Source of the DNA: Campylobacterales bacterium
Lineage (GTDB): Bacteria; Campylobacterota; Campylobacteria; Campylobacterales; UBA6016
DNA length: 48,740 nucleotides
NCBI GenBank assembly: GCA_031960985.1
Contig: JAVRLX010000005.1
Coordinates: 1 to 48,740, forward strand
Direction: 5' to 3'
This document shows positions 1 through 29,108 of this stretch, piece by piece. The position numbers and the translations under genes are program-made. How positions within the stretch are numbered: position 1 is the first letter of the stretch; every line of letters begins with the position of its first letter. Under the pieces are notes generated by a model that saw nothing but the letters and a program-made list of their open reading frames with translations, was not told the origin of the DNA and searched no databases.

Positions 1-146
1 ACTGCTTGGCTTTTTTAGCTTTGGAACCGAAGCCGATATGCGTTAGCATCGGCAAGGCTGTCCCTGCCATAAATACGGGCTTTCAAGGAAACATCGGCTA
101 CGCCGAGCGCTTCGCTTGTTTTGCTCGTATTTGTGCGTAACATCAG
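1..146 (+). mobile_element. MITE-like palindromic repeat, copy 1 (left end cut off by window start)
   Basis: Shares gtccctgcc..aaatacgggcttt and tgctcgtatttgtgc.taacatcag with 7373-7504, and tttcaaggaaacatcgg...gagcgcttcgcttgttttg with the reverse complement of 24092-24207. Confidence 0.8.
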
Positions 147-163
147 TTAAAAAGAGGAGGAAA

Positions 164-391
164 TTATTCTCCCTCTTTTTTTTCTTCCTTTTCTCTCGGC
201 GCTACTTTGCAAGCCGTATTAATACCAAGCAGTGAATAAAGGGCGCAAAATCTAAACACGCCAGTACCCATTACAATAAGCCCTATAATCGTCACTATAA
301 GACTGCTAATACCCACAGTTCCAACCAATACCAAAACAATCCCTATTGCAATTCTCGCATATCTATCGATACCACCGACATTTTGTTTCAT
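164..391 (-). CDS. YgaP/DUF2892 family small membrane protein
   Basis: MKQNVGGIDRYARI N-terminus, two TM helices, C-x-L-Y-x-L-L-G-I-N-T motif. Confidence 0.85.
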   Translation of the reverse strand: MKQNVGGIDRYARIAIGIVLVLVGTVGISSLIVTIIGLIVMGTGVFRFCALYSLLGINTACKVAPREKEEKKEGE

Positions 392-420
392 AAGAGCTCC
401 TTATTTTGAAAATCTATCAA

Positions 421-1059
421 TTATAACAAAAAAGAAAGTAAAAGATATGCAGGAAGCATAAAAAACTTTGAAAGAGGGGTTGCTAGCGCTATAATGAGTA
501 TAATCATCCCATACCTGCCGATTTTTTCGTTAAACTCATCAATTGCGGATGAGCCAAACTTCCTACCCAAAAACCCTAGAGCATTTGAACCATCAAGCGG
601 TGGAATCGGCCAAAGATTAAAAACTGCCAAAATAGTATTATATACTACTAGATAATAGAGAATCATTGCAAACAGGCTATAACCTTGCATAAAACCAAGA
701 AGTATCGATGCGCCAACAGCCATCAAAAGGTTGTATATTATTCCAGCCAAAGATACCGCTATCGCGCCGTTATAGCCGCCATTTCGGACAACCGTCCACA
801 TATTAATAGGCACCGGCTTTGCCCAGCCAAAAAGAAAAGGGGCGCCCGAGATAAAAAGCAGTAACGGAACAACTATAGTTCCTACCGGGTCTATATGCAC
901 GATTGGGTTTATACTAAGTCTTCCCTCATTTTTTGCAGTATTATCTCCATATCGGTACGCCACATAGCCATGCATTATCTCATGCCCTATGATGGCTATC
1001 ATCAAAGCCGCCACTATGGAGATGGCCTTAAATATATCGAACCCGCCAAAGTCAAACAT
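421..1059 (-). CDS. Site-2 protease family (M50) membrane metalloprotease
   Basis: HEIMH zinc motif and NLWPIPPLDG motif; hydrophobic. Confidence 0.93.
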   Translation of the reverse strand: MFDFGGFDIFKAISIVAALMIAIIGHEIMHGYVAYRYGDNTAKNEGRLSINPIVHIDPVGTIVVPLLLFISGAPFLFGWAKPVPINMWTVVRNGGYNGAIAVSLAGIIYNLLMAVGASILLGFMQGYSLFAMILYYLVVYNTILAVFNLWPIPPLDGSNALGFLGRKFGSSAIDEFNEKIGRYGMIILIIALATPLSKFFMLPAYLLLSFLL

Positions 1060-19918: not shown

Positions 19919-20626
19919 ATGAAAAAGTTGATTTTGGCACTACTTGCAATAGCCTCGCTTGTATTTGCTAGAGAAAGGGCGGAGCTTACTGTAGTAAGTA
20001 TAGACTCTGACGGCATGGGCGCTCTATTAAAAGGGGACGCCGTACAAAAAGGGGCGACAGGAATAATAGTAACAAACCTAGTTGGCAATAAAGATGCGAT
20101 AGTAGCCTCCGCTTTGGCGCTTAATAGCGGCAACGAGGTAAGGGTAAAATTTCAAGTTATGAGCGATTTGGCTCAAGACGCTCTACCTAGGGCGTTAATT
20201 CTTCCAAAAGTAGGCGACAAAGCGCTATTTTATCTGTTTGACGACAGAGCAACGATAATTGCCAAAAATCAAGCCGATTACCAAAAAGTAGCCTCTATGG
20301 GCGGCAAAACTTGGGTGCATCCGGACTTGTTTGCAGCGCTTTTGGCAAGAGAGAGAAAAGGGGAGCCTGAGGCAAAACACTTTGCCTCTTTTTGCAAAAT
20401 ATATTCTGTTGGCAGTATTTATTTTGCAATAAAAGACAAGCTATACATCACCGATTGCCAAAGCATGGAAGTATTGGAAGAGAGAGCATTTGAATCTGAA
20501 AATTCAAAAGAGTTTGAGTCTCCTTTCTTTAAAAGAACCGGCGAGATTGATACCGGATACCTAGGTATGTTAAAAGAGAGCGTAAAAGACTACGACTCCT
20601 ACTATCTTAATCTTCTCGGACGCTAA
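19919..20626 (+). CDS. Exported plasminogen-binding-protein N-terminal (PgbA-like) domain protein
   Basis: Signal peptide; LAQDALP...PKVGD, IAKN, WVHPDLFAA, FC motifs; upstream of glcD. Confidence 0.7.
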   Translation: MKKLILALLAIASLVFARERAELTVVSIDSDGMGALLKGDAVQKGATGIIVTNLVGNKDAIVASALALNSGNEVRVKFQVMSDLAQDALPRALILPKVGDKALFYLFDDRATIIAKNQADYQKVASMGGKTWVHPDLFAALLARERKGEPEAKHFASFCKIYSVGSIYFAIKDKLYITDCQSMEVLEERAFESENSKEFESPFFKRTGEIDTGYLGMLKESVKDYDSYYLNLLGR

Positions 20627-20627
20627 G

Positions 20628-22010
20628 ATGCTAGACAAAAAACACATATCAGCACTAAAATCGATAGTTGGCGAAGATAACTGCTTTGATGATAAAGCGC
20701 ACCTAATAGCCTACTGCTACGACGCTACAAAAAATCGGTATGAACCATCTGCCGTCGTCTTTCCAAGGGATGAAGAGGATGTAAGCCGCATCCTCAAATA
20801 CTGCAACGATAACAAAATAGCCGTTGTCCCAAGGGGGGCTGGAAGCGGATTTACCGGTGGCGCTTTGCCAGTTACGGGCGGAATAACGCTTGCCTTTGAA
20901 AAGCATATGAATAAAATTTTAGAAATTGATATGCAAAACCTTGTAGCCGTAGTGCAACCTGGGGTTATTAACAAAGAGCTTCAAGAGGCGGTAGAGCGCG
21001 TGGGGCTATTTTATCCGCCAGATCCAGCCAGTCAAGAGTACAGCACCATAGGGGGAAATGTCGCTGAAAACGCAGGTGGCATGAGAGCAGCAAAATACGG
21101 TATTACAAAAGACTATGTGATGGCAATGCGTGCAGTATTGCCAAACGGCGACATCATAAAAGCAGGAAAAAGAACGATAAAAGACGTAGCTGGTTACAAT
21201 CTTTGCGGCATACTCGTAGGAAGCGAAGGGACGCTGGCCGTAACGACGGAAATTACACTCAAACTCATCCCAAAACCAAAATTTACAAAGACTGCGATGG
21301 GGATATTTGATACTGTAGAAAATGCTATGAATGCGGTGTATAAAACTTTTGCGGCAGGGATTACACCGGTAGCGATGGAGTTTTTAGATAATCTCACAAT
21401 AAGGGCTGTCGAAGAGGTGCACAAAAAAGGGCTACCCATAGATGCTGGCGCCATACTTATAACCGATGTGGATGGGAATTTTGAGGCAAACTTGGATAGT
21501 GAGCTAGATGCTTTAGAGGGGGTTTTTAGAGCCAATGGTTGCACGGATTTTGTAAGGGCAAAAGATAGCACAGAGGCTGCAAATTTGTGGTTTGCTAGAA
21601 GAAACGCATCTCAAAGTCTAAAAATTTATGGCAACAAAAAACTAAACGAGGATATTACTGTCCCACGCTCTGCTTTACCTGAGCTACTCACTCAGTATAA
21701 AAAAGTAAGCGAAAAATACGGCTTTAATATTCCGTGTTTTGGTCACACAGGGGATGGCAATGTCCATACGAATGTTATGACCGACAAAGACGATCCACAC
21801 AAATTAGAGATGGCTGAAAAAGCGATAGAGGAGATATTCCAAATCGCTATCGACCTTGGCGGCACGCTCAGCGGCGAGCACGGTATTGGCTTATCCAAAG
21901 CCCCTTTTATGAAGATGGCGTTTACGGATGCCGAGCTTGAACTTTTCCGCTCTATAAAAAAAGCGTTTGATCCAAATAATATTCTAAATCCGGGGAAGAT
22001 GGGGCTATAA
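20628..22010 (+). CDS. glcD: FAD-linked oxidase, glycolate oxidase subunit GlcD
   Basis: PRGAGSG, YPPDPAS, GSEGTL, GDGNVH, SGEHGIG, NPGK. Confidence 0.92.
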   Translation: MLDKKHISALKSIVGEDNCFDDKAHLIAYCYDATKNRYEPSAVVFPRDEEDVSRILKYCNDNKIAVVPRGAGSGFTGGALPVTGGITLAFEKHMNKILEIDMQNLVAVVQPGVINKELQEAVERVGLFYPPDPASQEYSTIGGNVAENAGGMRAAKYGITKDYVMAMRAVLPNGDIIKAGKRTIKDVAGYNLCGILVGSEGTLAVTTEITLKLIPKPKFTKTAMGIFDTVENAMNAVYKTFAAGITPVAMEFLDNLTIRAVEEVHKKGLPIDAGAILITDVDGNFEANLDSELDALEGVFRANGCTDFVRAKDSTEAANLWFARRNASQSLKIYGNKKLNEDITVPRSALPELLTQYKKVSEKYGFNIPCFGHTGDGNVHTNVMTDKDDPHKLEMAEKAIEEIFQIAIDLGGTLSGEHGIGLSKAPFMKMAFTDAELELFRSIKKAFDPNNILNPGKMGL

Positions 22011-22030: not shown

Positions 22031-22339
22031 ATGGAGCTTAACACAATAAAACAAGAGGTCCAAAATCTTGCCCCACTAATGCCTACTAAGATAATACTTT
22101 TTGGCTCTCAAGCTTACGGTACGCCAAATGATAATAGTGATATAGATCTCCTTATTGTCAAAAAAACGGTAATTTCAAAAATCAAAGAGTCAAATGAAGC
22201 AAGGCGTGCGCTAAAAAGGTTGCAAATGCCGATAGATGTAATAGTTGTCAGCGAAGAGGAGTTTGATTTTTATAAAGACCACCCCAATACTATTTATGCT
22301 GAAGCAGATAAAAGAGGAATAGTGCTTTATGCCAAATGA
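22031..22339 (+). CDS. Minimal nucleotidyltransferase (MNT) antitoxin
   Basis: FGS-x10-DID motif. Confidence 0.88.
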   Translation: MELNTIKQEVQNLAPLMPTKIILFGSQAYGTPNDNSDIDLLIVKKTVISKIKESNEARRALKRLQMPIDVIVVSEEEFDFYKDHPNTIYAEADKRGIVLYAK

Positions 22340-22727
22340 CTTTTTACTTGTGTATGAAATATATCTTGTAAAAGCAAAACAAGATTTAACGCTTGCCATC
22401 AAAAATATTGACGATAATGAAATAGCGCCTGAAATAATATTTTTTCATCTTCAGCAGGCAGTTGAAAAGATGCTAAAAGCTATTTTGGATTTTAAAGGTG
22501 TAGTATTCAAAAAGACTCATGATTTATTTAAACTCTGTGAGCTTGCTACAAAACACAATATCCCGCTACCTGATTTTGTCGATAAGCTTTGTGAACTCAC
22601 ACCATATGCTATAGAGGCTAGATACTCACTTTTACATGATGATTTGCAAGATGCGCAAGAGTTTTTAGACAAAGCAAAAATGTTTTTGGAATTTGTTGAA
22701 AATTTGATAGCAACTAAACCCCAATAA
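22329..22727 (+). CDS. HEPN domain protein (MNT partner)
   Basis: FHLQQAVEKMLKA, KTHDL, EARY; overlaps the MNT gene. Confidence 0.88.
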   Translation: MPNDFLLVYEIYLVKAKQDLTLAIKNIDDNEIAPEIIFFHLQQAVEKMLKAILDFKGVVFKKTHDLFKLCELATKHNIPLPDFVDKLCELTPYAIEARYSLLHDDLQDAQEFLDKAKMFLEFVENLIATKPQ

Positions 22728-23997
22728 CCCTATAAAACTCTAAAGCCTCTTTATTTGCCTTGATATCCCTCTCATTTAGATTGCGAGCGAGTCTCAACCC
22801 CTCTACTCTGCGGCAACGAGATAGCGCAACATATGTTTGTCCATCTGAAAATGCGCCGTTTCCTAGGTCTATTATCGCAGATTCTAGCGTCATCCCTTGC
22901 GATTTGTGTATCGTGACCGCCCAACCTAGGCTTACTGGAAACTGCTCGAAGCTGCCTACCACCTCTTTATCAATTTTTTTCGTTTTTTCATCGTAGGTGT
23001 AAGCATATCTCTCCCAGCTCATCCGCCCAACTTCTAGCGCTTCGCCACTTATGTCGCTTCGTACCATTATTGTGTCGCTTCCCATTGAGATTACTACGCC
23101 GGTGTCTCCGTTTATCCATCCTTTTGGCCTGTTGTTTCTTAGGAAGACGACTTTTGCGCCCACTTTTAGCTCCAACCTCTCAGGCGCTGATAGCCGCCAT
23201 CTATCGGCTGGCGTGTCGCCTGTGACATTGGCTATAAAACTCTTTGTTTCGCCGGGTAGCTCTGCCAATCTCCTTGCGTTAATAGAATGAGCGGCGGCAT
23301 TGGTAGCCACAAGCCACATTGGATTATTTAAATCGGCATGGGATTTGAGGCAGTTAGAGTTGAAGTATTTTAGCGCCGCCGTCATATTGACCCCCTCTCT
23401 CACCCATCCCAGAGCCTCAATAAACCTCGCATCTGCTTGACGGCGAACCCTTGTCAAATGCACCGGGATAATATCTATCTCGTCAAACACATCGGCGGAG
23501 TAAAAAAACTGCGTCTCATACCTCTCTTTAAAATATTGCCTCTCTTCGTGTGTAGATATAACTGGCGGCAACTGCAAAAGGTCTCCAACAAACACAACCG
23601 ATACCCCGCCAAATGGCTCATCTTTTTTGCGGGCGCGGCGAAGCATCACATCCATTGCATCTACTATATTTGGCGTCACCATCGACGCTTCATCTATAAT
23701 TAGAGTGTGCATCTGCTGTGCTACCGCTTTTGATTTTGAATTTAGGTGGAGCTTTTCGCCGGGGTCTATGTGGCGGGCAGGTAAACCGAAAAAAGAGTGT
23801 ATTGTATCCCCTCCTGCATTGATAGCGGCGGCGGCGGTCGGAGCCAGTATTACGGAGTCTTTTATGGCTGAGGTAAGATAGCGAATCATCGTGGATTTTC
23901 CAGTGCCCGCCTTGCCTGTTACAAAAACCACCGAACCGCCTATAACGGCTAGCTCCAAAGCTTTTTTATACTCAGGTATTATCTCTATCTCGTCCAA
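22714..23997 (-). CDS. Pif1/RecD-like SF1B DNA helicase
   Basis: GKAGTGKS, APT, IIDEASM, GDLLQLPPV, RRQ, WAVTIHKSQGMT, GQTYVALSR. Confidence 0.93.
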   Translation of the reverse strand: MDEIEIIPEYKKALELAVIGGSVVFVTGKAGTGKSTMIRYLTSAIKDSVILAPTAAAAINAGGDTIHSFFGLPARHIDPGEKLHLNSKSKAVAQQMHTLIIDEASMVTPNIVDAMDVMLRRARKKDEPFGGVSVVFVGDLLQLPPVISTHEERQYFKERYETQFFYSADVFDEIDIIPVHLTRVRRQADARFIEALGWVREGVNMTAALKYFNSNCLKSHADLNNPMWLVATNAAAHSINARRLAELPGETKSFIANVTGDTPADRWRLSAPERLELKVGAKVVFLRNNRPKGWINGDTGVVISMGSDTIMVRSDISGEALEVGRMSWERYAYTYDEKTKKIDKEVVGSFEQFPVSLGWAVTIHKSQGMTLESAIIDLGNGAFSDGQTYVALSRCRRVEGLRLARNLNERDIKANKEALEFYRVIGV

Positions 23998-24440: not shown

Positions 24441-25121
24441 ATGGTCAAAAGAATAGTTTTAGCGGGATTTCTTGCAGTAAGCTGCGCAAATGCTGGAATG
24501 TTTGATAGTGTTGCCGGTGCCGTAATGGGAGGAGGAAGTTCTAGCGCCGCTAGTGTTTCAGAATCTGATATAAAAGGTGTTATTTCATCTTTTCAAGATG
24601 CAGAAAAAGCTCTTTCTAGCTCAATTGAGCTAATCAATAAAGCGCTTGGGGATAAGCAAGCGATAGCCAAGCTGGAAGAAGAAAAGAAAACAATCTTGGC
24701 AATGCCTGATGGCGCCGAAAAAGACGCAAAAATGAAAGAGCTTGAAAAATCAGCTGAGGCCGAAGCAGCTAAAATTCTTAAAAGTAAAGAAGCGGCCAAT
24801 AAAGCAGCAAAACTATCTAGCGAACAAAAACAAAAAATAGCTGTCGCAGGCTACAATATTTTACTAGCTGCATTAAAAGACAAAGATGCTCTTGCCAAAG
24901 CAAAAAACCTTGTCTCTTCAGTATCGGCAAATCCTACAATGGCTGTTAAGTTTGCTGGCGACCTTCCAAAATTAAAAGATATAGTAGCAACGGCGCCATC
25001 TCAAATAGAAAGTCTCGCAACGATAAGTTCTGGCTTTATGAGCCTTGCAAAAACGGCAAAAATCTCCGTAACACAGCCAGCATCGAGCAATGAACCATTT
25101 AAACCTGTGGACAATATCTAA
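24441..25121 (+). CDS. Exported Ala/Lys-rich, probably all-alpha hypothetical protein
   Basis: AAGGAG RBS, Sec signal (ANA cleavage site), amphipathic helices. Confidence 0.85.
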   Translation: MVKRIVLAGFLAVSCANAGMFDSVAGAVMGGGSSSAASVSESDIKGVISSFQDAEKALSSSIELINKALGDKQAIAKLEEEKKTILAMPDGAEKDAKMKELEKSAEAEAAKILKSKEAANKAAKLSSEQKQKIAVAGYNILLAALKDKDALAKAKNLVSSVSANPTMAVKFAGDLPKLKDIVATAPSQIESLATISSGFMSLAKTAKISVTQPASSNEPFKPVDNI

Positions 25122-25174: not shown

Positions 25175-26872
25175 ATGATAAGTAAAAAAATTTTAAGTGT
25201 TGCGCTATGTGCGGCTTTACTTGCACCTACATCAATGTTTGCGGCAAATTTCAATCAACAAGTTATTGGAAAAGGGGATGCTATCATAGAGGGCGATACT
25301 GTAACAGTACAAAACAAGGCTCTTGAAAAAGCTAAAAAGAATGCGGTACTTACCGCTATAAATGGATTACTTGGTGTGCAGATAAGTGAAAATGACGAGC
25401 AATTTGCCGCAAAAATTAACGAGATAATAAATCAATTTACAAAATTTGCTGAGATTCAGAAAAAAACACTGTCAAGAGAAGATGGAAATCTCAAGATGGA
25501 GCTTGTCGTAAATATTGATGAAGTAGTTTTTCGCTCTGTACTAAAAGATTATGGAATTGGGCTAAATCAAAAAGCAAGAGAGATTGGCTCCATAGTGGTA
25601 TTTTTTGATGAAAGTGAAAAACCATATGACAGTCCAAAAGATATGTATAATGAATACATAGAGTACAAACGAGATAATTCGCAATATTCAAAAAGCGCCA
25701 GCGCCTCAAGCTCTGCTAGCTCATCGGCTTTAAGCATCCAGGATAAAGAAAGTGCATCATATTCTGATAAAAGAGCTGTTGCGGCTAGATCATCATCAGA
25801 GGCATCATATAGCGGTAGACAAGGCTTTAGTGGACATGAAAGCGGCGCTGTAAGCGTTGGTGGAGACTATGCGGCCGGCTCAAGAAGCGTAAGTGGTTCA
25901 AGTTCAGTCAATGCTCATGCAAAAGACTCAGCAAGTTATGCGGCTAGCTCTGATACAAAAGCGGCCTATTCTAAAGATTTAGATCTTAAAAGTGCAAAAT
26001 CATCCTCAAAGAGTTCATTCAAAAGCTCAAGTTCAACACAAATGGACAAAGAAAGCTTTATTTATAAGAAAGAGTATAAAGAGATAAAAGAGGCGCCTAT
26101 AAATTCAAACTATGCCAAATCAGAACTTCAAAACAACCTAAAGCAATACGGTTTGGAATTTGTGGAGGCTCCAGGAATATTGGCTGAATTTAATAAATTT
26201 AATAAGGGCAATAAAAAACCGTACAAATCATATACAGAGGTTTTAAACAGCGCTGATTCTACAAAGTTTAGAGATTTTGTCAGGAATAAAACAAAAGCCG
26301 ATTATATGGGGGTAGCGTACTCTCAAATTAATTATTCTTTGAAGCAAGATGAGACAACCGGAAAATATATCTGTACAACAACGCAAAGCAATGTAAATAT
26401 CTTTTCACTGAAAGATTCTAAATCACTCGATAGTGGCTCACTGGAGGCAATAAAACAAGCTGCAACCTCTATAGAAGATTGCAAAAGTAATGCTAGATTA
26501 GATATGGCAAAAATTTTAGGACAAACAATAGGCTTGGCCTTACAAAAAACCGTTCGAGACGCAACGAGGAGTTTTGCATCTGGCTTTACTACATACAAGG
26601 TAGTGCTTCAAGGGAGCTTTGACAGGCAAACGAGAACTGGATTTCAAAAAATGCTTGATACTCTAAAAAACCAAGTTAAAGGCTATAAACTTGTAAGTCA
26701 AGACGAAAAGGGAATTGTTTACGAAATAACTTACAGTGGAAATAAAGAGATTGGCGATTTCTTGTTGGATTCTGCCACATCGCCTGAACATGCAAATCTA
26801 AAACCAGTTTTTGATAAATATGATATGAAAAAAGAAGGACAAAATTTGGTTGTTCTTTACCCTGTAAAATAA
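25175..26872 (+). CDS. Exported FlgT-N-like / CsgG-fold-like protein with long Ser-rich insert
   Basis: Signal peptide; GKGDAII...KALEKAKKNAV resembles FlgT-N/LPP20; alpha/beta core interrupted by residues ~158-301. Confidence 0.65.
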   Translation: MISKKILSVALCAALLAPTSMFAANFNQQVIGKGDAIIEGDTVTVQNKALEKAKKNAVLTAINGLLGVQISENDEQFAAKINEIINQFTKFAEIQKKTLSREDGNLKMELVVNIDEVVFRSVLKDYGIGLNQKAREIGSIVVFFDESEKPYDSPKDMYNEYIEYKRDNSQYSKSASASSSASSSALSIQDKESASYSDKRAVAARSSSEASYSGRQGFSGHESGAVSVGGDYAAGSRSVSGSSSVNAHAKDSASYAASSDTKAAYSKDLDLKSAKSSSKSSFKSSSSTQMDKESFIYKKEYKEIKEAPINSNYAKSELQNNLKQYGLEFVEAPGILAEFNKFNKGNKKPYKSYTEVLNSADSTKFRDFVRNKTKADYMGVAYSQINYSLKQDETTGKYICTTTQSNVNIFSLKDSKSLDSGSLEAIKQAATSIEDCKSNARLDMAKILGQTIGLALQKTVRDATRSFASGFTTYKVVLQGSFDRQTRTGFQKMLDTLKNQVKGYKLVSQDEKGIVYEITYSGNKEIGDFLLDSATSPEHANLKPVFDKYDMKKEGQNLVVLYPVK

Positions 26873-26882
26873 GGTCGTATTT

Positions 26883-28859
26883 ATGAAAAAATTATTATTT
26901 TTTGCATTAATAACTTTTGGTTGTATAGCGTATGCAGCAGATAATGACTTTGAAATTTGGCTTTCAGATGCTGTAGTGACTGGAGAGTCAGTAGAGTTAA
27001 ATAAGGAATTTATGCAGGCAGCTGGAGACAAAAAAGAAAAATTAAGGGAGAGCTTTAAAAGATCTTTTAAAGCCTCTTTTTCTAATGCGGTAGACAAAAT
27101 AGACCCCAAAAAAAGGCGTTCTACTGCCGCTGCCTTTTTGTCTATTGTTAGAGCATCAAAATATGATGTAAATATGGAAGGCTCTAATGTAGTTCTCTAT
27201 ACACTTCCAGTTACAGCTACCATCAACTTTGTCAATATCTCAACTGGTGAACTTTTATATTCGCAAACTTACACGCATATAGGCTCAATTGAGGTGGCAA
27301 AAAATGAAGCAAATATAGAGTCTAAAATTATAAAAAACTATTATGTAACAACTAAAGAGCTTATAGATGAGTTGGCAAAAACAGCAAGTAAAAAGTTTGT
27401 ACCAAAAAAATTACAAACAAAAATTATAGGTATAGAGCATGGAGTTATTGTACTTGATCAAGGAAGTTCTAATGGTGTTGTCGAAGGCGATAGTTTAGAT
27501 GGTGATAACGGAGAAATAATAAATGTCATCTACGCTTCCCAAGATTATGCTATTGCCAAAGAAGAGCTTGGAAAAGCTAAAATCGGTAGCACATATACAA
27601 AAACATATAGCCAATCATTAGAAGATATTAAAAAGCCAAAAATTACATTACTAGATATACAATACAACGATAAAATCTTACCAGTGCCAGAAGAAATGAT
27701 GTATCAATTTTTTGCAGACAAACTATCACAAAAAGGCTCTTTTACACTTCTCTCGATAAACAAAAATTTTTACACTGCAATTAACGCATTGCAAAACTCT
27801 GCGAACTTGGGGATAAGATTTGGAAAAAGAAATACACCTGATTATTTTATGCGTCTTTATATAAACGGGCCATATTTTTATGATATACCAACCAATGTTG
27901 ATTATGCAAAACAACGGATATATCAAGCTACGGTTTGCGGCGAAATCGTTGATAGCTCGGCGCGCGTTTTAGGCTCTGAGTGTCAAAATGAAAAAATAGA
28001 AGATGAAATTAAATTTGGCAAAGCGTACTCAAAAGAAGCTAGATTTCAAGTTTTATCCAAAAATGCGATAGGTACGCTCGCTGAAAAACTATCTGCAAAA
28101 ATATCTTTTGAACCGATTTCATATAAAGTAATTTCTGTCAAAGATGACAAAATAGAGATAGAAGATGACAAACATCTTCTAAGCGAAGGAGCCAATATAA
28201 CCGTATTTAAAAATCTCGGCAATATTGGCGGCGAAAAAGATGTTTTTGCCCCAATCATGGAAGCCGTAGTTGAATCAAAAAATGGAGATAAAGTACTTGC
28301 CAAAGAGATTATCAAAACTTTTAATGAGGCGCCAAGTGTTAAAAAAGGTGATATGATATTTGAAAGTGTTATAAAAACGACAAGCGATACATCCAAACTC
28401 TTTAGTATATGTGCTACTGAGTCAAATTCTGGAGGTGAAAAAATAGAAGGATTTGAGGAAGTTTCTAAATTTCTAATATCGCAATATTTAAAATACCCTT
28501 TTTATGACGCTATCGGATTACAATCAGTCATAGACACAAAAATTAGCGATACGGAATTTGAAAAAGTACCAAAAATAACTGCGCCAAAGACTACCTACTG
28601 TTTGAATCCAGTCTATAGATATACAAAAATTTCAGAAAATATCTCAACAGAACACAAAGGCTACAAGGAAATTACATATAATGCAATTGCAGGTGTTAAA
28701 GAGTTTGCTGGTTCGGAGCTAAAAAGCAAGTTTGCCCTTGGTGGCAAAATCACAGAATACGCTCCATCCGCTTTTGCGCCAGAATATATGCACTTAAAAC
28801 TTCTAGAGTCTAGTATAGGTAATTTTGAAAAATCAATGCAGAAACTAGAAATCAAATAG
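26883..28859 (+). CDS. Exported multidomain protein with repeated CsgG/TolB-N-like and FlgT-C-like domains
   Basis: Signal peptide; VTATINFVNISTGELLYS; IIGIEHGVIVLDQGSSNGVVEGD and a second unit VISVKDDKIEI...VKKGDMI. Confidence 0.65.
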   Translation: MKKLLFFALITFGCIAYAADNDFEIWLSDAVVTGESVELNKEFMQAAGDKKEKLRESFKRSFKASFSNAVDKIDPKKRRSTAAAFLSIVRASKYDVNMEGSNVVLYTLPVTATINFVNISTGELLYSQTYTHIGSIEVAKNEANIESKIIKNYYVTTKELIDELAKTASKKFVPKKLQTKIIGIEHGVIVLDQGSSNGVVEGDSLDGDNGEIINVIYASQDYAIAKEELGKAKIGSTYTKTYSQSLEDIKKPKITLLDIQYNDKILPVPEEMMYQFFADKLSQKGSFTLLSINKNFYTAINALQNSANLGIRFGKRNTPDYFMRLYINGPYFYDIPTNVDYAKQRIYQATVCGEIVDSSARVLGSECQNEKIEDEIKFGKAYSKEARFQVLSKNAIGTLAEKLSAKISFEPISYKVISVKDDKIEIEDDKHLLSEGANITVFKNLGNIGGEKDVFAPIMEAVVESKNGDKVLAKEIIKTFNEAPSVKKGDMIFESVIKTTSDTSKLFSICATESNSGGEKIEGFEEVSKFLISQYLKYPFYDAIGLQSVIDTKISDTEFEKVPKITAPKTTYCLNPVYRYTKISENISTEHKGYKEITYNAIAGVKEFAGSELKSKFALGGKITEYAPSAFAPEYMHLKLLESSIGNFEKSMQKLEIK

Positions 28860-28868
28860 AGGGTTAAA

Positions 28869-29108
28869 ATGGAAAATTCTTCAAAAAATATAACGGTAAT
28901 TTTAACTACTATCGTATTTTTATGCTTGCTAAACCTCGGTGCAACTGGATACCTGATAAAAATTTTTACTGATGAAAGAAATGTACCAAAAGTAGAGAAA
29001 ATCGAATGTAATGAAAAAGATAAGGATGAGCTTAGCAAAAAACTCGACAGATTTTTTGAAAAACAAGACGAAGAGATGAAAAAATTGTTTGAGGAGAAAA
29101 CACATTGA
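28869..29108 (+). CDS. Small single-pass membrane protein with charged C-terminal helix
   Basis: One TM segment; GAGG RBS; co-oriented with the cluster. Confidence 0.7.
   Translation: MENSSKNITVILTTIVFLCLLNLGATGYLIKIFTDERNVPKVEKIECNEKDKDELSKKLDRFFEKQDEEMKKLFEEKTH

Follow-up and report, generated by a model that had tools for sequence, protein, structure and literature searches.

A 48,740-nucleotide (nt) stretch of DNA from Campylobacterales bacterium (assembly GCA_031960985.1, contig JAVRLX010000005.1, positions 1-48,740 forward; hereafter the window) contains a gene, P0001, for a protein of 565 amino acids (aa) with a long Ser-rich insert. Our analysis indicates that this insert, residues about 158-301, is very probably one very long antiparallel β-hairpin with a two-residue turn, V228-G229, and a pairing register of i+j=457. 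The complete model, in which P0001 forms a ring and the hairpins of its subunits combine into a soluble periplasmic tube, has by our estimate a probability of about 0.45.

The Ser-rich insert of P0001 and its homologues

The features of P0001 are given below. Confidence values are pLDDT (predicted local distance difference test) scores from the AlphaFold2 (AF2) monomer model; strands were assigned by DSSP.

25175..26872, + strand: P0001, the hairpin-bearing gene, an open reading frame (ORF) of 565 aa
25175..25243, + strand: signal peptide, residues 1-23, with a probable signal-peptidase-I site after ...SMFA, judged from the sequence
25256..25549, + strand: domain 1, residues 28-125, FlgT-N/Lpp20-like α/β domain (pLDDT 74-92)
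25586..25624, + strand: first β-strand of domain 2, residues 138-150, continuing into the N arm of the hairpin (DSSP E138-150, then E160-167)
25646..25855, + strand: N arm of the probable hairpin, residues 158-227 (base is the predicted strand 160-167)
25856..25861, + strand: probable turn V228-G229, centre of the i+j=457 register, followed by G230 (from sequence; a Gly-rich motif is central family-wide)
25862..26077, + strand: C arm of the probable hairpin, residues 230-301 (base is the predicted strand 292-299)
26102..26569, + strand: remainder of domain 2, residues 310-465, an α/β core like that of PqiC/DUF330, PelC, CsgG, TolB-N and LptE (pLDDT 80-93; VIA-align)
26582..26869, + strand: domain 3, residues 470-565, a small α/β domain (pLDDT 88-95)

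The initial annotation of this DNA had described the segment at 25646..26077 as free of Pro, rich in Ser and Ala and bounded by Pro, and the translation of the ORF confirms this description. The segment starts with Y158 (25646) and ends with Y301 (26077). The prolines of P0001 are residues 18, 150, 154, 308, 333, 349, 537, 544 and 563; hence residues 155-307 are Pro-free and flanked by P154 and P308. The 144 residues from 158 to 301 include 44 Ser (31%), 20 Ala (14%), 14 Lys, 11 Tyr, 9 Asp and 8 Gly, and V228-G229-G230 stands at the centre. The six pairs of large hydrophobic residues that had been placed across the turn at an index sum of 457 (F218/V239, Y212/V245, V202/Y255, I188/L269, L186/L271 and I162/F295) are all present, and Y161/I296 is a seventh. 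Seven hydrophobic-hydrophobic pairs is also the maximum over all registers in P0001. The same number was reached, at any register, by 122 of 5000 composition-preserving shuffles; the sequence of P0001 taken singly is therefore no more than suggestive.

More information comes from the family. We analyzed an alignment (A2) of 44 full-length members, from which fragments and proteins shorter than about 450 aa were left out. Insert length was taken as the distance between two conserved acidic positions, D167 and D291 of P0001. This distance ranges from 49 to 141 aa across the 44 homologues, a 2.9-fold variation. Throughout this range the turn stays central: the Gly-richest 7-residue window lies at a fractional position of 0.52 +/- 0.07, and turn position regressed on insert length gives a slope of 0.51 (r 0.92). 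Insertions and deletions in the homologues are thus symmetric about the turn, which had been proposed as a check on the hairpin. An individual case can be seen in the comparison of P0001 with P0003-P0005 (alignment A1), where P0001 is missing two residues after S180 and two after S278. These gaps mirror each other within two residues and lie inside the Ser run; P0001 also lacks a larger block at the tip.

The insert lengths are quantised. The difference from the P0001 length, modulo 4, is 0 in 32 members, 1 in 10, 2 in 2 and 3 in none. There are 26 distinct lengths, 16 of which fall into one residue class modulo 4 (binomial p 8.6e-5), and the result is unchanged with two other anchor pairs. 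Among 32 sequences below 50% mutual identity the length classes split 23 and 9. An antiparallel ladder repeats every two residues per strand, so that side chains return to the same face and hydrogen bonds to the same pattern. From this geometry we infer that the four-residue steps correspond to two residues per arm. The length class that is offset by one residue fits a turn that is longer by one residue.

Slippage of the DNA was considered as an origin of these steps and dropped. Tandem Repeats Finder gave a single weak row under the insert, 2.3 copies of 9 nt at 26069-26088, i.e. at the 3' end of the insert, and no tandem repeat beneath its Ser-rich part. The only other repeats found in the insert DNA are short: three families of direct repeats (12-14 nt, two copies each) and a palindrome of 12 nt.

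The two faces of the proposed ladder differ in composition. Face A, made up of the even-numbered N-arm and the odd-numbered C-arm positions, is basic and polar, with enrichment of Ser, Lys, Arg, Asn, Gln and Thr; on face B, formed by the remaining positions, Gly, Tyr, Val, Leu, Phe, Asp and Glu are overrepresented. This two-faced pattern of period 2 is in phase with the anchors and common to both arms. Pro makes up about 0.1% of the arms family-wide.

The strongest signal was obtained by counting hydrophobic pairs across the turn. Over the 44 sequences there are 134 such pairs at the i+j=457 register, as compared with 11-52 at 40 other registers; the 32 non-redundant sequences give 96 pairs versus at most 31 elsewhere. 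The pairs are spread along the arms from base to turn. With the conserved pair beside the base omitted, 101 pairs are left, while 500 parity-preserving shuffles gave 26.7 +/- 4.6 (maximum 40), a difference of about 16 standard deviations. When the 44 sequences were scored individually, the proposed register was the unique best in 21 and tied for best in 16. A register score based on residue classes had scattered optima in the individual sequences and reached its peak at the proposed register only when summed over the family; the count of hydrophobic pairs is far sharper.

Autocorrelation within the arms also has a period of 2, with even lags above odd ones. Lags 3 and 7 are depleted and there is no parallel repeat period. 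Neither a helix nor a solenoid fits this pattern; we thus ruled out a helical hairpin or coiled coil from the period-2 autocorrelation with depleted lags 3 and 7, and a β-solenoid from the absence of a preferred parallel lag. A solenoid of short strands had been named at the outset as an outcome that would speak against the hairpin.

Hydrophobic residues of the same arm are underrepresented at short range: at lags 1-7 they reach 0.35-0.85 of the expected number, and they recur at even lags from 8 upward. In the group of P0003 hydrophobic pairs occur at positions 5, 23, 37 and 51 from the anchor. The twist period of a two-stranded ribbon could account for this spacing, as could rings in a barrel.

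Together, the symmetric insertions and deletions, the quantised lengths, the single pairing diagonal, the two faces and the scarcity of Pro support the single, giant, register-symmetric β-hairpin that the initial annotation had proposed. The AF2 model agrees with it in part. The model, computed from the 44-row alignment, has a mean pLDDT of 71.8, with confident flanking domains and predicted strands at 160-167 and 292-299, the base of the hairpin. Residues 171-288 are left unstructured in it. Formally this is an outcome that counts against the hairpin, but in our judgement it is outweighed by the evidence from the family.

Host domain and the proposed tube

We compared the P0001 model with known structures. 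Foldseek matched it to FlgT (8z5n, E 7.6e-6; 3w1e, E 1.8e-5), and also to GNA1162, CT253, HpaA, XCC0632, Lpp20, CsgG (E 1.2e-3 and weaker), LpoB and PelC. In VIA-align the best match to the host domain is XCC0632 of the DUF330 type (2iqi_A, Z 10.6, root-mean-square deviation (rmsd) 4.2, 141 of 173 residues aligned); others of the PqiC/DUF330 type are 8q2d_B (PqiC, Z 7.9) and 6osx (Z 8.2). Comparable values were found for CT253 (6uxc, Z 10.1), HpaA (Z 8.9), TolB-N (7mx5, Z 8.7) and a chain of the PelC dodecamer (5t10, Z 8.4). Chains of CsgG gave Z 7.0-8.4 (6lqh highest, Z 8.4) for 146-157 residues over model positions 130..468, which is no more than moderately above background.

FlgT aligns over a longer part of the protein, from P0001 residues 22-28 to about 460, with a different arrangement of the domains (3w1e, Z 10.0, 229 residues aligned, rmsd 13.1; 8z5n_0, Z 9.7, 175 residues aligned, rmsd 4.1). 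For domain 1 the alignment starts at residue 22 or 28, and Foldseek also matched Lpp20 (5ok8). The matches of domain 3 reflect only a common arrangement, with Z about 7 to a ribosomal protein in VIA-align. The single-domain chains of the PqiC, PelC and CsgG type align to model positions of about 130..465 and thus span the insert. The hairpin is therefore inserted within domain 2, after strand 138-150, and is not an interdomain linker.

Domains of this fold class form closed rings of 8, 9, 12 or 26 subunits elsewhere. PelC dodecamers are named in the titles of the PDB entries. According to the accessible part of PMC13631591, PqiC, PA3214 and XCC0632 are octameric rings, lipoproteins of the LptE, PelC and CsgG type have the same α/β core, and rings of the PqiC type surround a periplasm-spanning needle. 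The H ring of Vibrio contains 26 subunits of the three-domain protein FlgT, as described in the accessible text of bioRxiv 10.64898/2025.12.04.692373. From the fold class alone, it is plausible that P0001 also forms a ring.

P0001 shares features with each of these systems and also differs from them. CsgG (4uv3, 4uv2, 6lqh) has the same α/β core as domain 2 of P0001, and in CsgG, as we propose for P0001, the core sheet continues into a hairpin, and ring formation is needed to make a barrel of it. A non-lipidated pre-pore form of CsgG reportedly lacks ordered hairpins. However, each subunit of the lipoprotein CsgG contributes two short membrane hairpins, whereas P0001 has no lipobox and one hairpin that is about three times longer and has no membrane-like face. 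P0001 had no Pfam match to CsgG (PF03783), and this family is absent from the best 25 of the 34 families matched by the 44 members at E up to 1; one look-alike cluster in the ESM Atlas has CsgG on 33% of its members, which is a lead only. PqiC, PA3214 and XCC0632 (DUF330) have the core fold in common with the host domain, but proteins of the PqiC type are lipoproteins that work with MCE proteins and have no hairpin insert, while P0001 lacks a lipobox. FlgT (3w1e, 8z5n) is a multi-domain secreted protein of the same fold class. Neither a hairpin nor a barrel is mentioned for it in the accessible text of bioRxiv 10.64898/2025.12.04.692373, where these words do not occur. P0001 did not match FlgT_N (PF16548); 3 of the 44 homologues match it weakly (best E 0.0034), and the look-alike Atlas clusters have it on 22% of their members.

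In the β-collars of FliF and SpoIIIAG and in secretin barrels, a hairpin in a small, ring-forming α/β domain gives rise to a soluble vertical barrel above the ring. These hairpins are far shorter than that of P0001 and sit in a different host fold, and there is no structural match to them among the matches listed. The principle of a hairpin in a ring-forming domain is thus already known from CsgG and also from FliF, SpoIIIAG and secretins. As far as can be told, the length of the hairpin, its soluble character, its position in the host fold and the four-residue quantisation are new.

Export of P0001 by the Sec pathway, without a lipobox, is strongly supported. Signal peptides and lipoboxes were judged by eye and with a loose lipobox pattern on the N-termini of the 44 homologues. 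A small-x-small motif ends the signal peptide in most of them, and the lipobox pattern matches three (P0009, P0031 and P0064) and does not match P0001. C12 (25208-25210), a residue inside the P0001 signal peptide, is conserved across the 12 closest homologues at a level of 90% or more, with no lipobox preceding it.

On this basis we propose the following assembly. The α/β domains would assemble into a ring, as this fold does elsewhere, and the hairpins of neighbouring subunits, which would probably be unfolded before assembly, would zip side by side into a long, water-soluble β-barrel collar or tube. One face of this barrel (face A) would present Ser, Lys, Arg, Asn, Gln and Thr, and the other (face B) Ser, Ala and Gly together with spaced pairs of Tyr, Val, Leu or Phe and with Asp and Glu; the spaced hydrophobic pairs of one face would line up as rings, each at a fixed height. 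With about 66 residue pairs and 3.3 A per residue, the length would be about 22 nm untilted and about 15-18 nm at the usual tilt of a barrel; for the whole family, with arms of about 24-70 residues, the range would be about 8-23 nm. The tube would stand in the periplasm in a complex with a putative helical lipoprotein, a FlgT-like protein of 658 aa and a small lipoprotein, all encoded next to P0001 (see below). Evolution would lengthen or shorten it in units of two residues per arm, so that the side chains stay on their face and the hydrogen bonds in register.

A bolder version can be formulated, which we regard as doubtful. It holds that a ring of 8 to 12 subunits, or a larger one, closes the hairpins into a soluble nanotube of about 15-20 nm. 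This would be the longest known β-barrel, about twice the stem of anthrax protective antigen (PA), and, as the conduit or shaft of an unrecognised four-gene envelope machine, it would reach across much of the periplasm. Each lineage would match the length of the tube to its envelope width, in steps of two residues per strand.

Alternatives to a closed tube

Several observations weigh against the ring and tube, and some of them against the hairpin itself. No predicted oligomer stands behind the ring or tube. A four-copy prediction of residues 152-310 with A2 scored 0.00; it was made without controls and speaks neither for nor against binding. The insertion after strand 1 differs from what we take to be the position of the membrane hairpins in CsgG. 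With no lipobox in P0001, and the pattern in only 3 of the 44 homologues, anchorage of the ring is left unexplained. In the AF2 monomer residues 171-288 have no secondary structure and a pLDDT of 31-41, and a Ser content of 31% is typical of disordered linkers too. In addition, 12 of the 44 insert lengths fall outside the main class modulo 4, and in 7 of the 44 sequences the proposed register is not among the best. Finally, the homologues are related, so that the counts overstate their independence, although the result still holds in the non-redundant subset.

The hydrophobicity of the faces bears on both a membrane stem and a closed barrel. When the arms were divided into 6-residue bins between turn and base, hydrophobic residues made up 0-0.28 of a bin on face B and 0.02-0.23 on face A. 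In the 12 residues nearest the turn the fraction was 0.11-0.21 for face B and 0.05-0.15 for face A. In P0001 itself, VILFMWY, A or G occupy at most 6 alternate positions in succession, and the mean Kyte-Doolittle value of the best five alternate residues is only 1.8. Neither face of the hairpin is hydrophobic enough to span a membrane. The initial annotation had likened the insert to the stems of β-pore-forming proteins and suggested that it could reach another membrane. Stems of the anthrax PA and aerolysin type are likewise long, Ser-rich hairpins of period 2, their barrel forms only after oligomerisation, and the disorder of the P0001 insert in the monomer model is what would be expected of a pre-stem. 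Long extramembrane barrel stems do exist, since the accessible text of PMC4516782 describes the stem of anthrax PA as a barrel with 14 strands and of about 100 A. However, the arms of P0001 are roughly twice as long as those of PA and have no membrane-facing hydrophobic belt, and no relation in sequence or fold was found between the two. P0001 has no match to a toxin family in Pfam, NCBIfam or the PDB sequences, and there is no toxin among the fold matches listed, which are periplasmic domains of the lipoprotein type. The gene also lies in an envelope module with lipoproteins. This part of the annotation is not supported, and we consider it improbable that the hairpin inserts into or crosses a membrane on oligomerisation as a needle or pore.

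The main rival accepts the hairpin and gives up the closed barrel. The insert could be a free, twisted two-stranded ribbon or a rod in which two or three hairpins are packed by their face of Ser, Ala, Gly, Tyr and Val, either of which might act as a tunable, rigid spacer or arm; or it could add its strands to the long sheets of the 658-aa partner. All evidence for the hairpin applies equally here. The low hydrophobic content of face B (0-28% per bin) does not call for a closed barrel, and a ribbon or two-layer rod fits equally well. Small residues abound on face B and its hydrophobic pairs are spaced by 8 residues or more, as would suit contacts at regular intervals, either within a rod or to a partner; face A is basic and polar. 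The model of the 658-aa partner has strands of 16-17 residues, and a 2.9-fold variation in insert length would be expected of a spacer. Yet the host fold class repeatedly forms closed rings (of 8, 9, 12 and 26 subunits), which would bring the hairpins side by side, and an isolated ribbon of about 66 pairs with few hydrophobic residues would presumably be only marginally stable. We rate an open ribbon, rod or strand addition as possible but somewhat unlikely. Another alternative is an intrinsically disordered linker between domains, rich in Ser and Ala, whose symmetry would be coincidental. The low pLDDT and missing secondary structure of residues 171-288, the low-complexity composition and the wide length variation among homologues would all agree with this. 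A linker leaves unexplained, however, the central turn at all lengths, the four-residue steps, the period-2 faces, the near absence of Pro and a mirror diagonal about 16 standard deviations above the parity-preserving shuffles; furthermore, the segment interrupts a domain instead of joining two. We hold this explanation to be very improbable.

Family, gene module and significance

P0001 matched no Pfam family at E up to 0.01 and no NCBIfam or PADLOC family. A word-indexed search returned 13 relatives, and an exhaustive one with phmmer gave 56 cluster representatives at E up to 0.001, including 35 at E up to 1e-10. The named matches are all called hypothetical protein; one is from an Erythrobacter metagenome-assembled genome (MAG) and one from a Sulfuricurvum MAG. 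Searches of the PDB sequences gave nothing significant: the best match of the family profile A1 (E 0.2) is a Cyt toxin over domain 1, and the insert alone had no match at E up to 10. A search of the ESM Atlas with the insert alone gave no usable match. The literature searched contains no account of the family or of such a hairpin, and one of the searches yielded nothing beyond work on FlgT itself; subscription journals were mostly outside this search, so one could have been missed.

The gene occurs in 5 of the 9 genomes of its own genus (G000 counted) and in none of 32 other sampled genomes of the order. In an even sample of the phylum (401 genomes) only G000 has a full-length match. The homologues in the same genus (L002-L005, from G001, G008, G005 and G002) are ORFs of 459-501 aa; their match to P0001 ends at residues 462-464, and they therefore lack domain 3. 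The short-form metagenome relatives P0012 and P0017 retain a long insert, with 129 aa between the anchors. In another genus of the order (g32; L008-L018), 15 of 38 genomes match profile positions 20-120 weakly (E 2e-5 to 6e-5), over domain 1 only. Judging by their size, the matched ORFs, of 170-196 aa, probably encode small proteins of the Lpp20 type.

P0001 is the second gene of a module. The other members are as follows.

24441..25121, + strand: first gene of the module, 226 aa, signal peptide ending ...LAVSC
26883..28859, + strand: third gene, 658 aa, a secreted multi-domain protein like FlgT, HpaA, CsgG and LptE (AF2 mean pLDDT 81.2)
29105..29494, + strand: possible fourth gene, 129 aa, a small lipoprotein with the lipobox ...LSGC (from the translation)

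The 226-aa protein has a possible lipobox at ...LAVSC, and the remainder, rich in Ala, Lys and Glu, looks helical, so it is a putative helical lipoprotein. It had no match in Pfam, NCBIfam, PADLOC or the PDB sequences. The 658-aa protein is closer to FlgT than P0001 is (Foldseek with the model: 8z5n, E 1.6e-11; 3w1e, E 2.7e-10). It matched no Pfam, NCBIfam or PADLOC family, and its profile found nothing significant among the PDB sequences; the same holds for the 129-aa protein with regard to Pfam, NCBIfam and PADLOC. A profile-profile comparison of the 565-aa and 658-aa families indicated no relation (probability 0.3%). The 658-aa model has three modules in which strands of 16-17 residues are followed by a helix of 23-27 residues (E321-336, E342-357, E361-377, H384-406), with smaller β domains between them.

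The gene trio (226/565/658 aa) is conserved in all four same-genus genomes that hold the gene. A homologue of the 226-aa gene adjoins the 565-aa homologue in L002-L005 (30-39% identity) and the hairpin gene in the distant metagenome loci L020 and L021 (36% identity). The 658-aa gene adjoins the hairpin gene in L002-L006 and L019-L021, with 31-34% identity in three metagenome contigs. On three metagenome contigs, homologues of the 226-aa and 658-aa genes adjoin a hairpin homologue of only about 25% identity. A homologue of the 129-aa gene follows the 658-aa gene in the Sulfuricurvum locus L006 (45% identity), and in L019 another lipoprotein ORF, of 134 aa, is in this place.

Genes for a GT4 glycosyltransferase (29538-30638, + strand) and a PglB-type oligosaccharyltransferase (30681-32780, + strand) lie just downstream of the module. 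The latter has STT3/PglB Pfam domains and matches NCBIfam ProtGlycPglB with E 8.5e-167 and 556.7 bits, below the cut-off of 1300 bits. A GT4 homologue also adjoins the module in L002-L004 of the same genus, on the opposite side. We considered the module as a target of N-glycosylation by the adjacent pgl genes and dropped this idea, as the sequon D/E-x-N-x-S/T occurs in none of the four module proteins. Directly upstream of the module are a HEPN-domain protein (22329-22727, + strand, E 7.7e-22) and a PIF1/RecD-like SF1B helicase (22714-23997, - strand, PIF1 E 9.5e-28), whose genes converge with an overlap of 14 bases, and further away a protein with PgbA_N, the N-terminal domain of plasminogen-binding protein (19919-20626, + strand, E 2.9e-51), followed by an FAD-linked oxidase (20628-22010, + strand).

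A flagellar function was also considered. FlgH is present in 9 of 9 genomes of the genus versus 5 of 9 for the hairpin gene, which is therefore not a general part of the flagellum. The candidate was dropped, since the distribution in the genus does not track FlgH and the neighbours are not flagellar genes. A Pfam scan of 9 other ORFs of the window found no flagellar, MCE or curli family; the whole genome was not searched for MCE.

A conserved gene module with no annotated function is an obvious target for cryo-electron microscopy. The four-residue quantisation is a clean natural case in which the geometry of a β-ladder constrains insertions and deletions, and it provides a simple sequence test for assembly-dependent hairpins that predictors call disordered. 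Ring domains of the CsgG, PelC, PqiC, LptE and FlgT type are central to secretion, lipid transport and motility, and a branch of them whose soluble hairpin has strands of up to about 70 residues would represent a new building principle. If the hairpins close into a tube, they would offer a way across the periplasm by β-sheet, where MCE proteins use helical needles and efflux adaptors helical hairpins.

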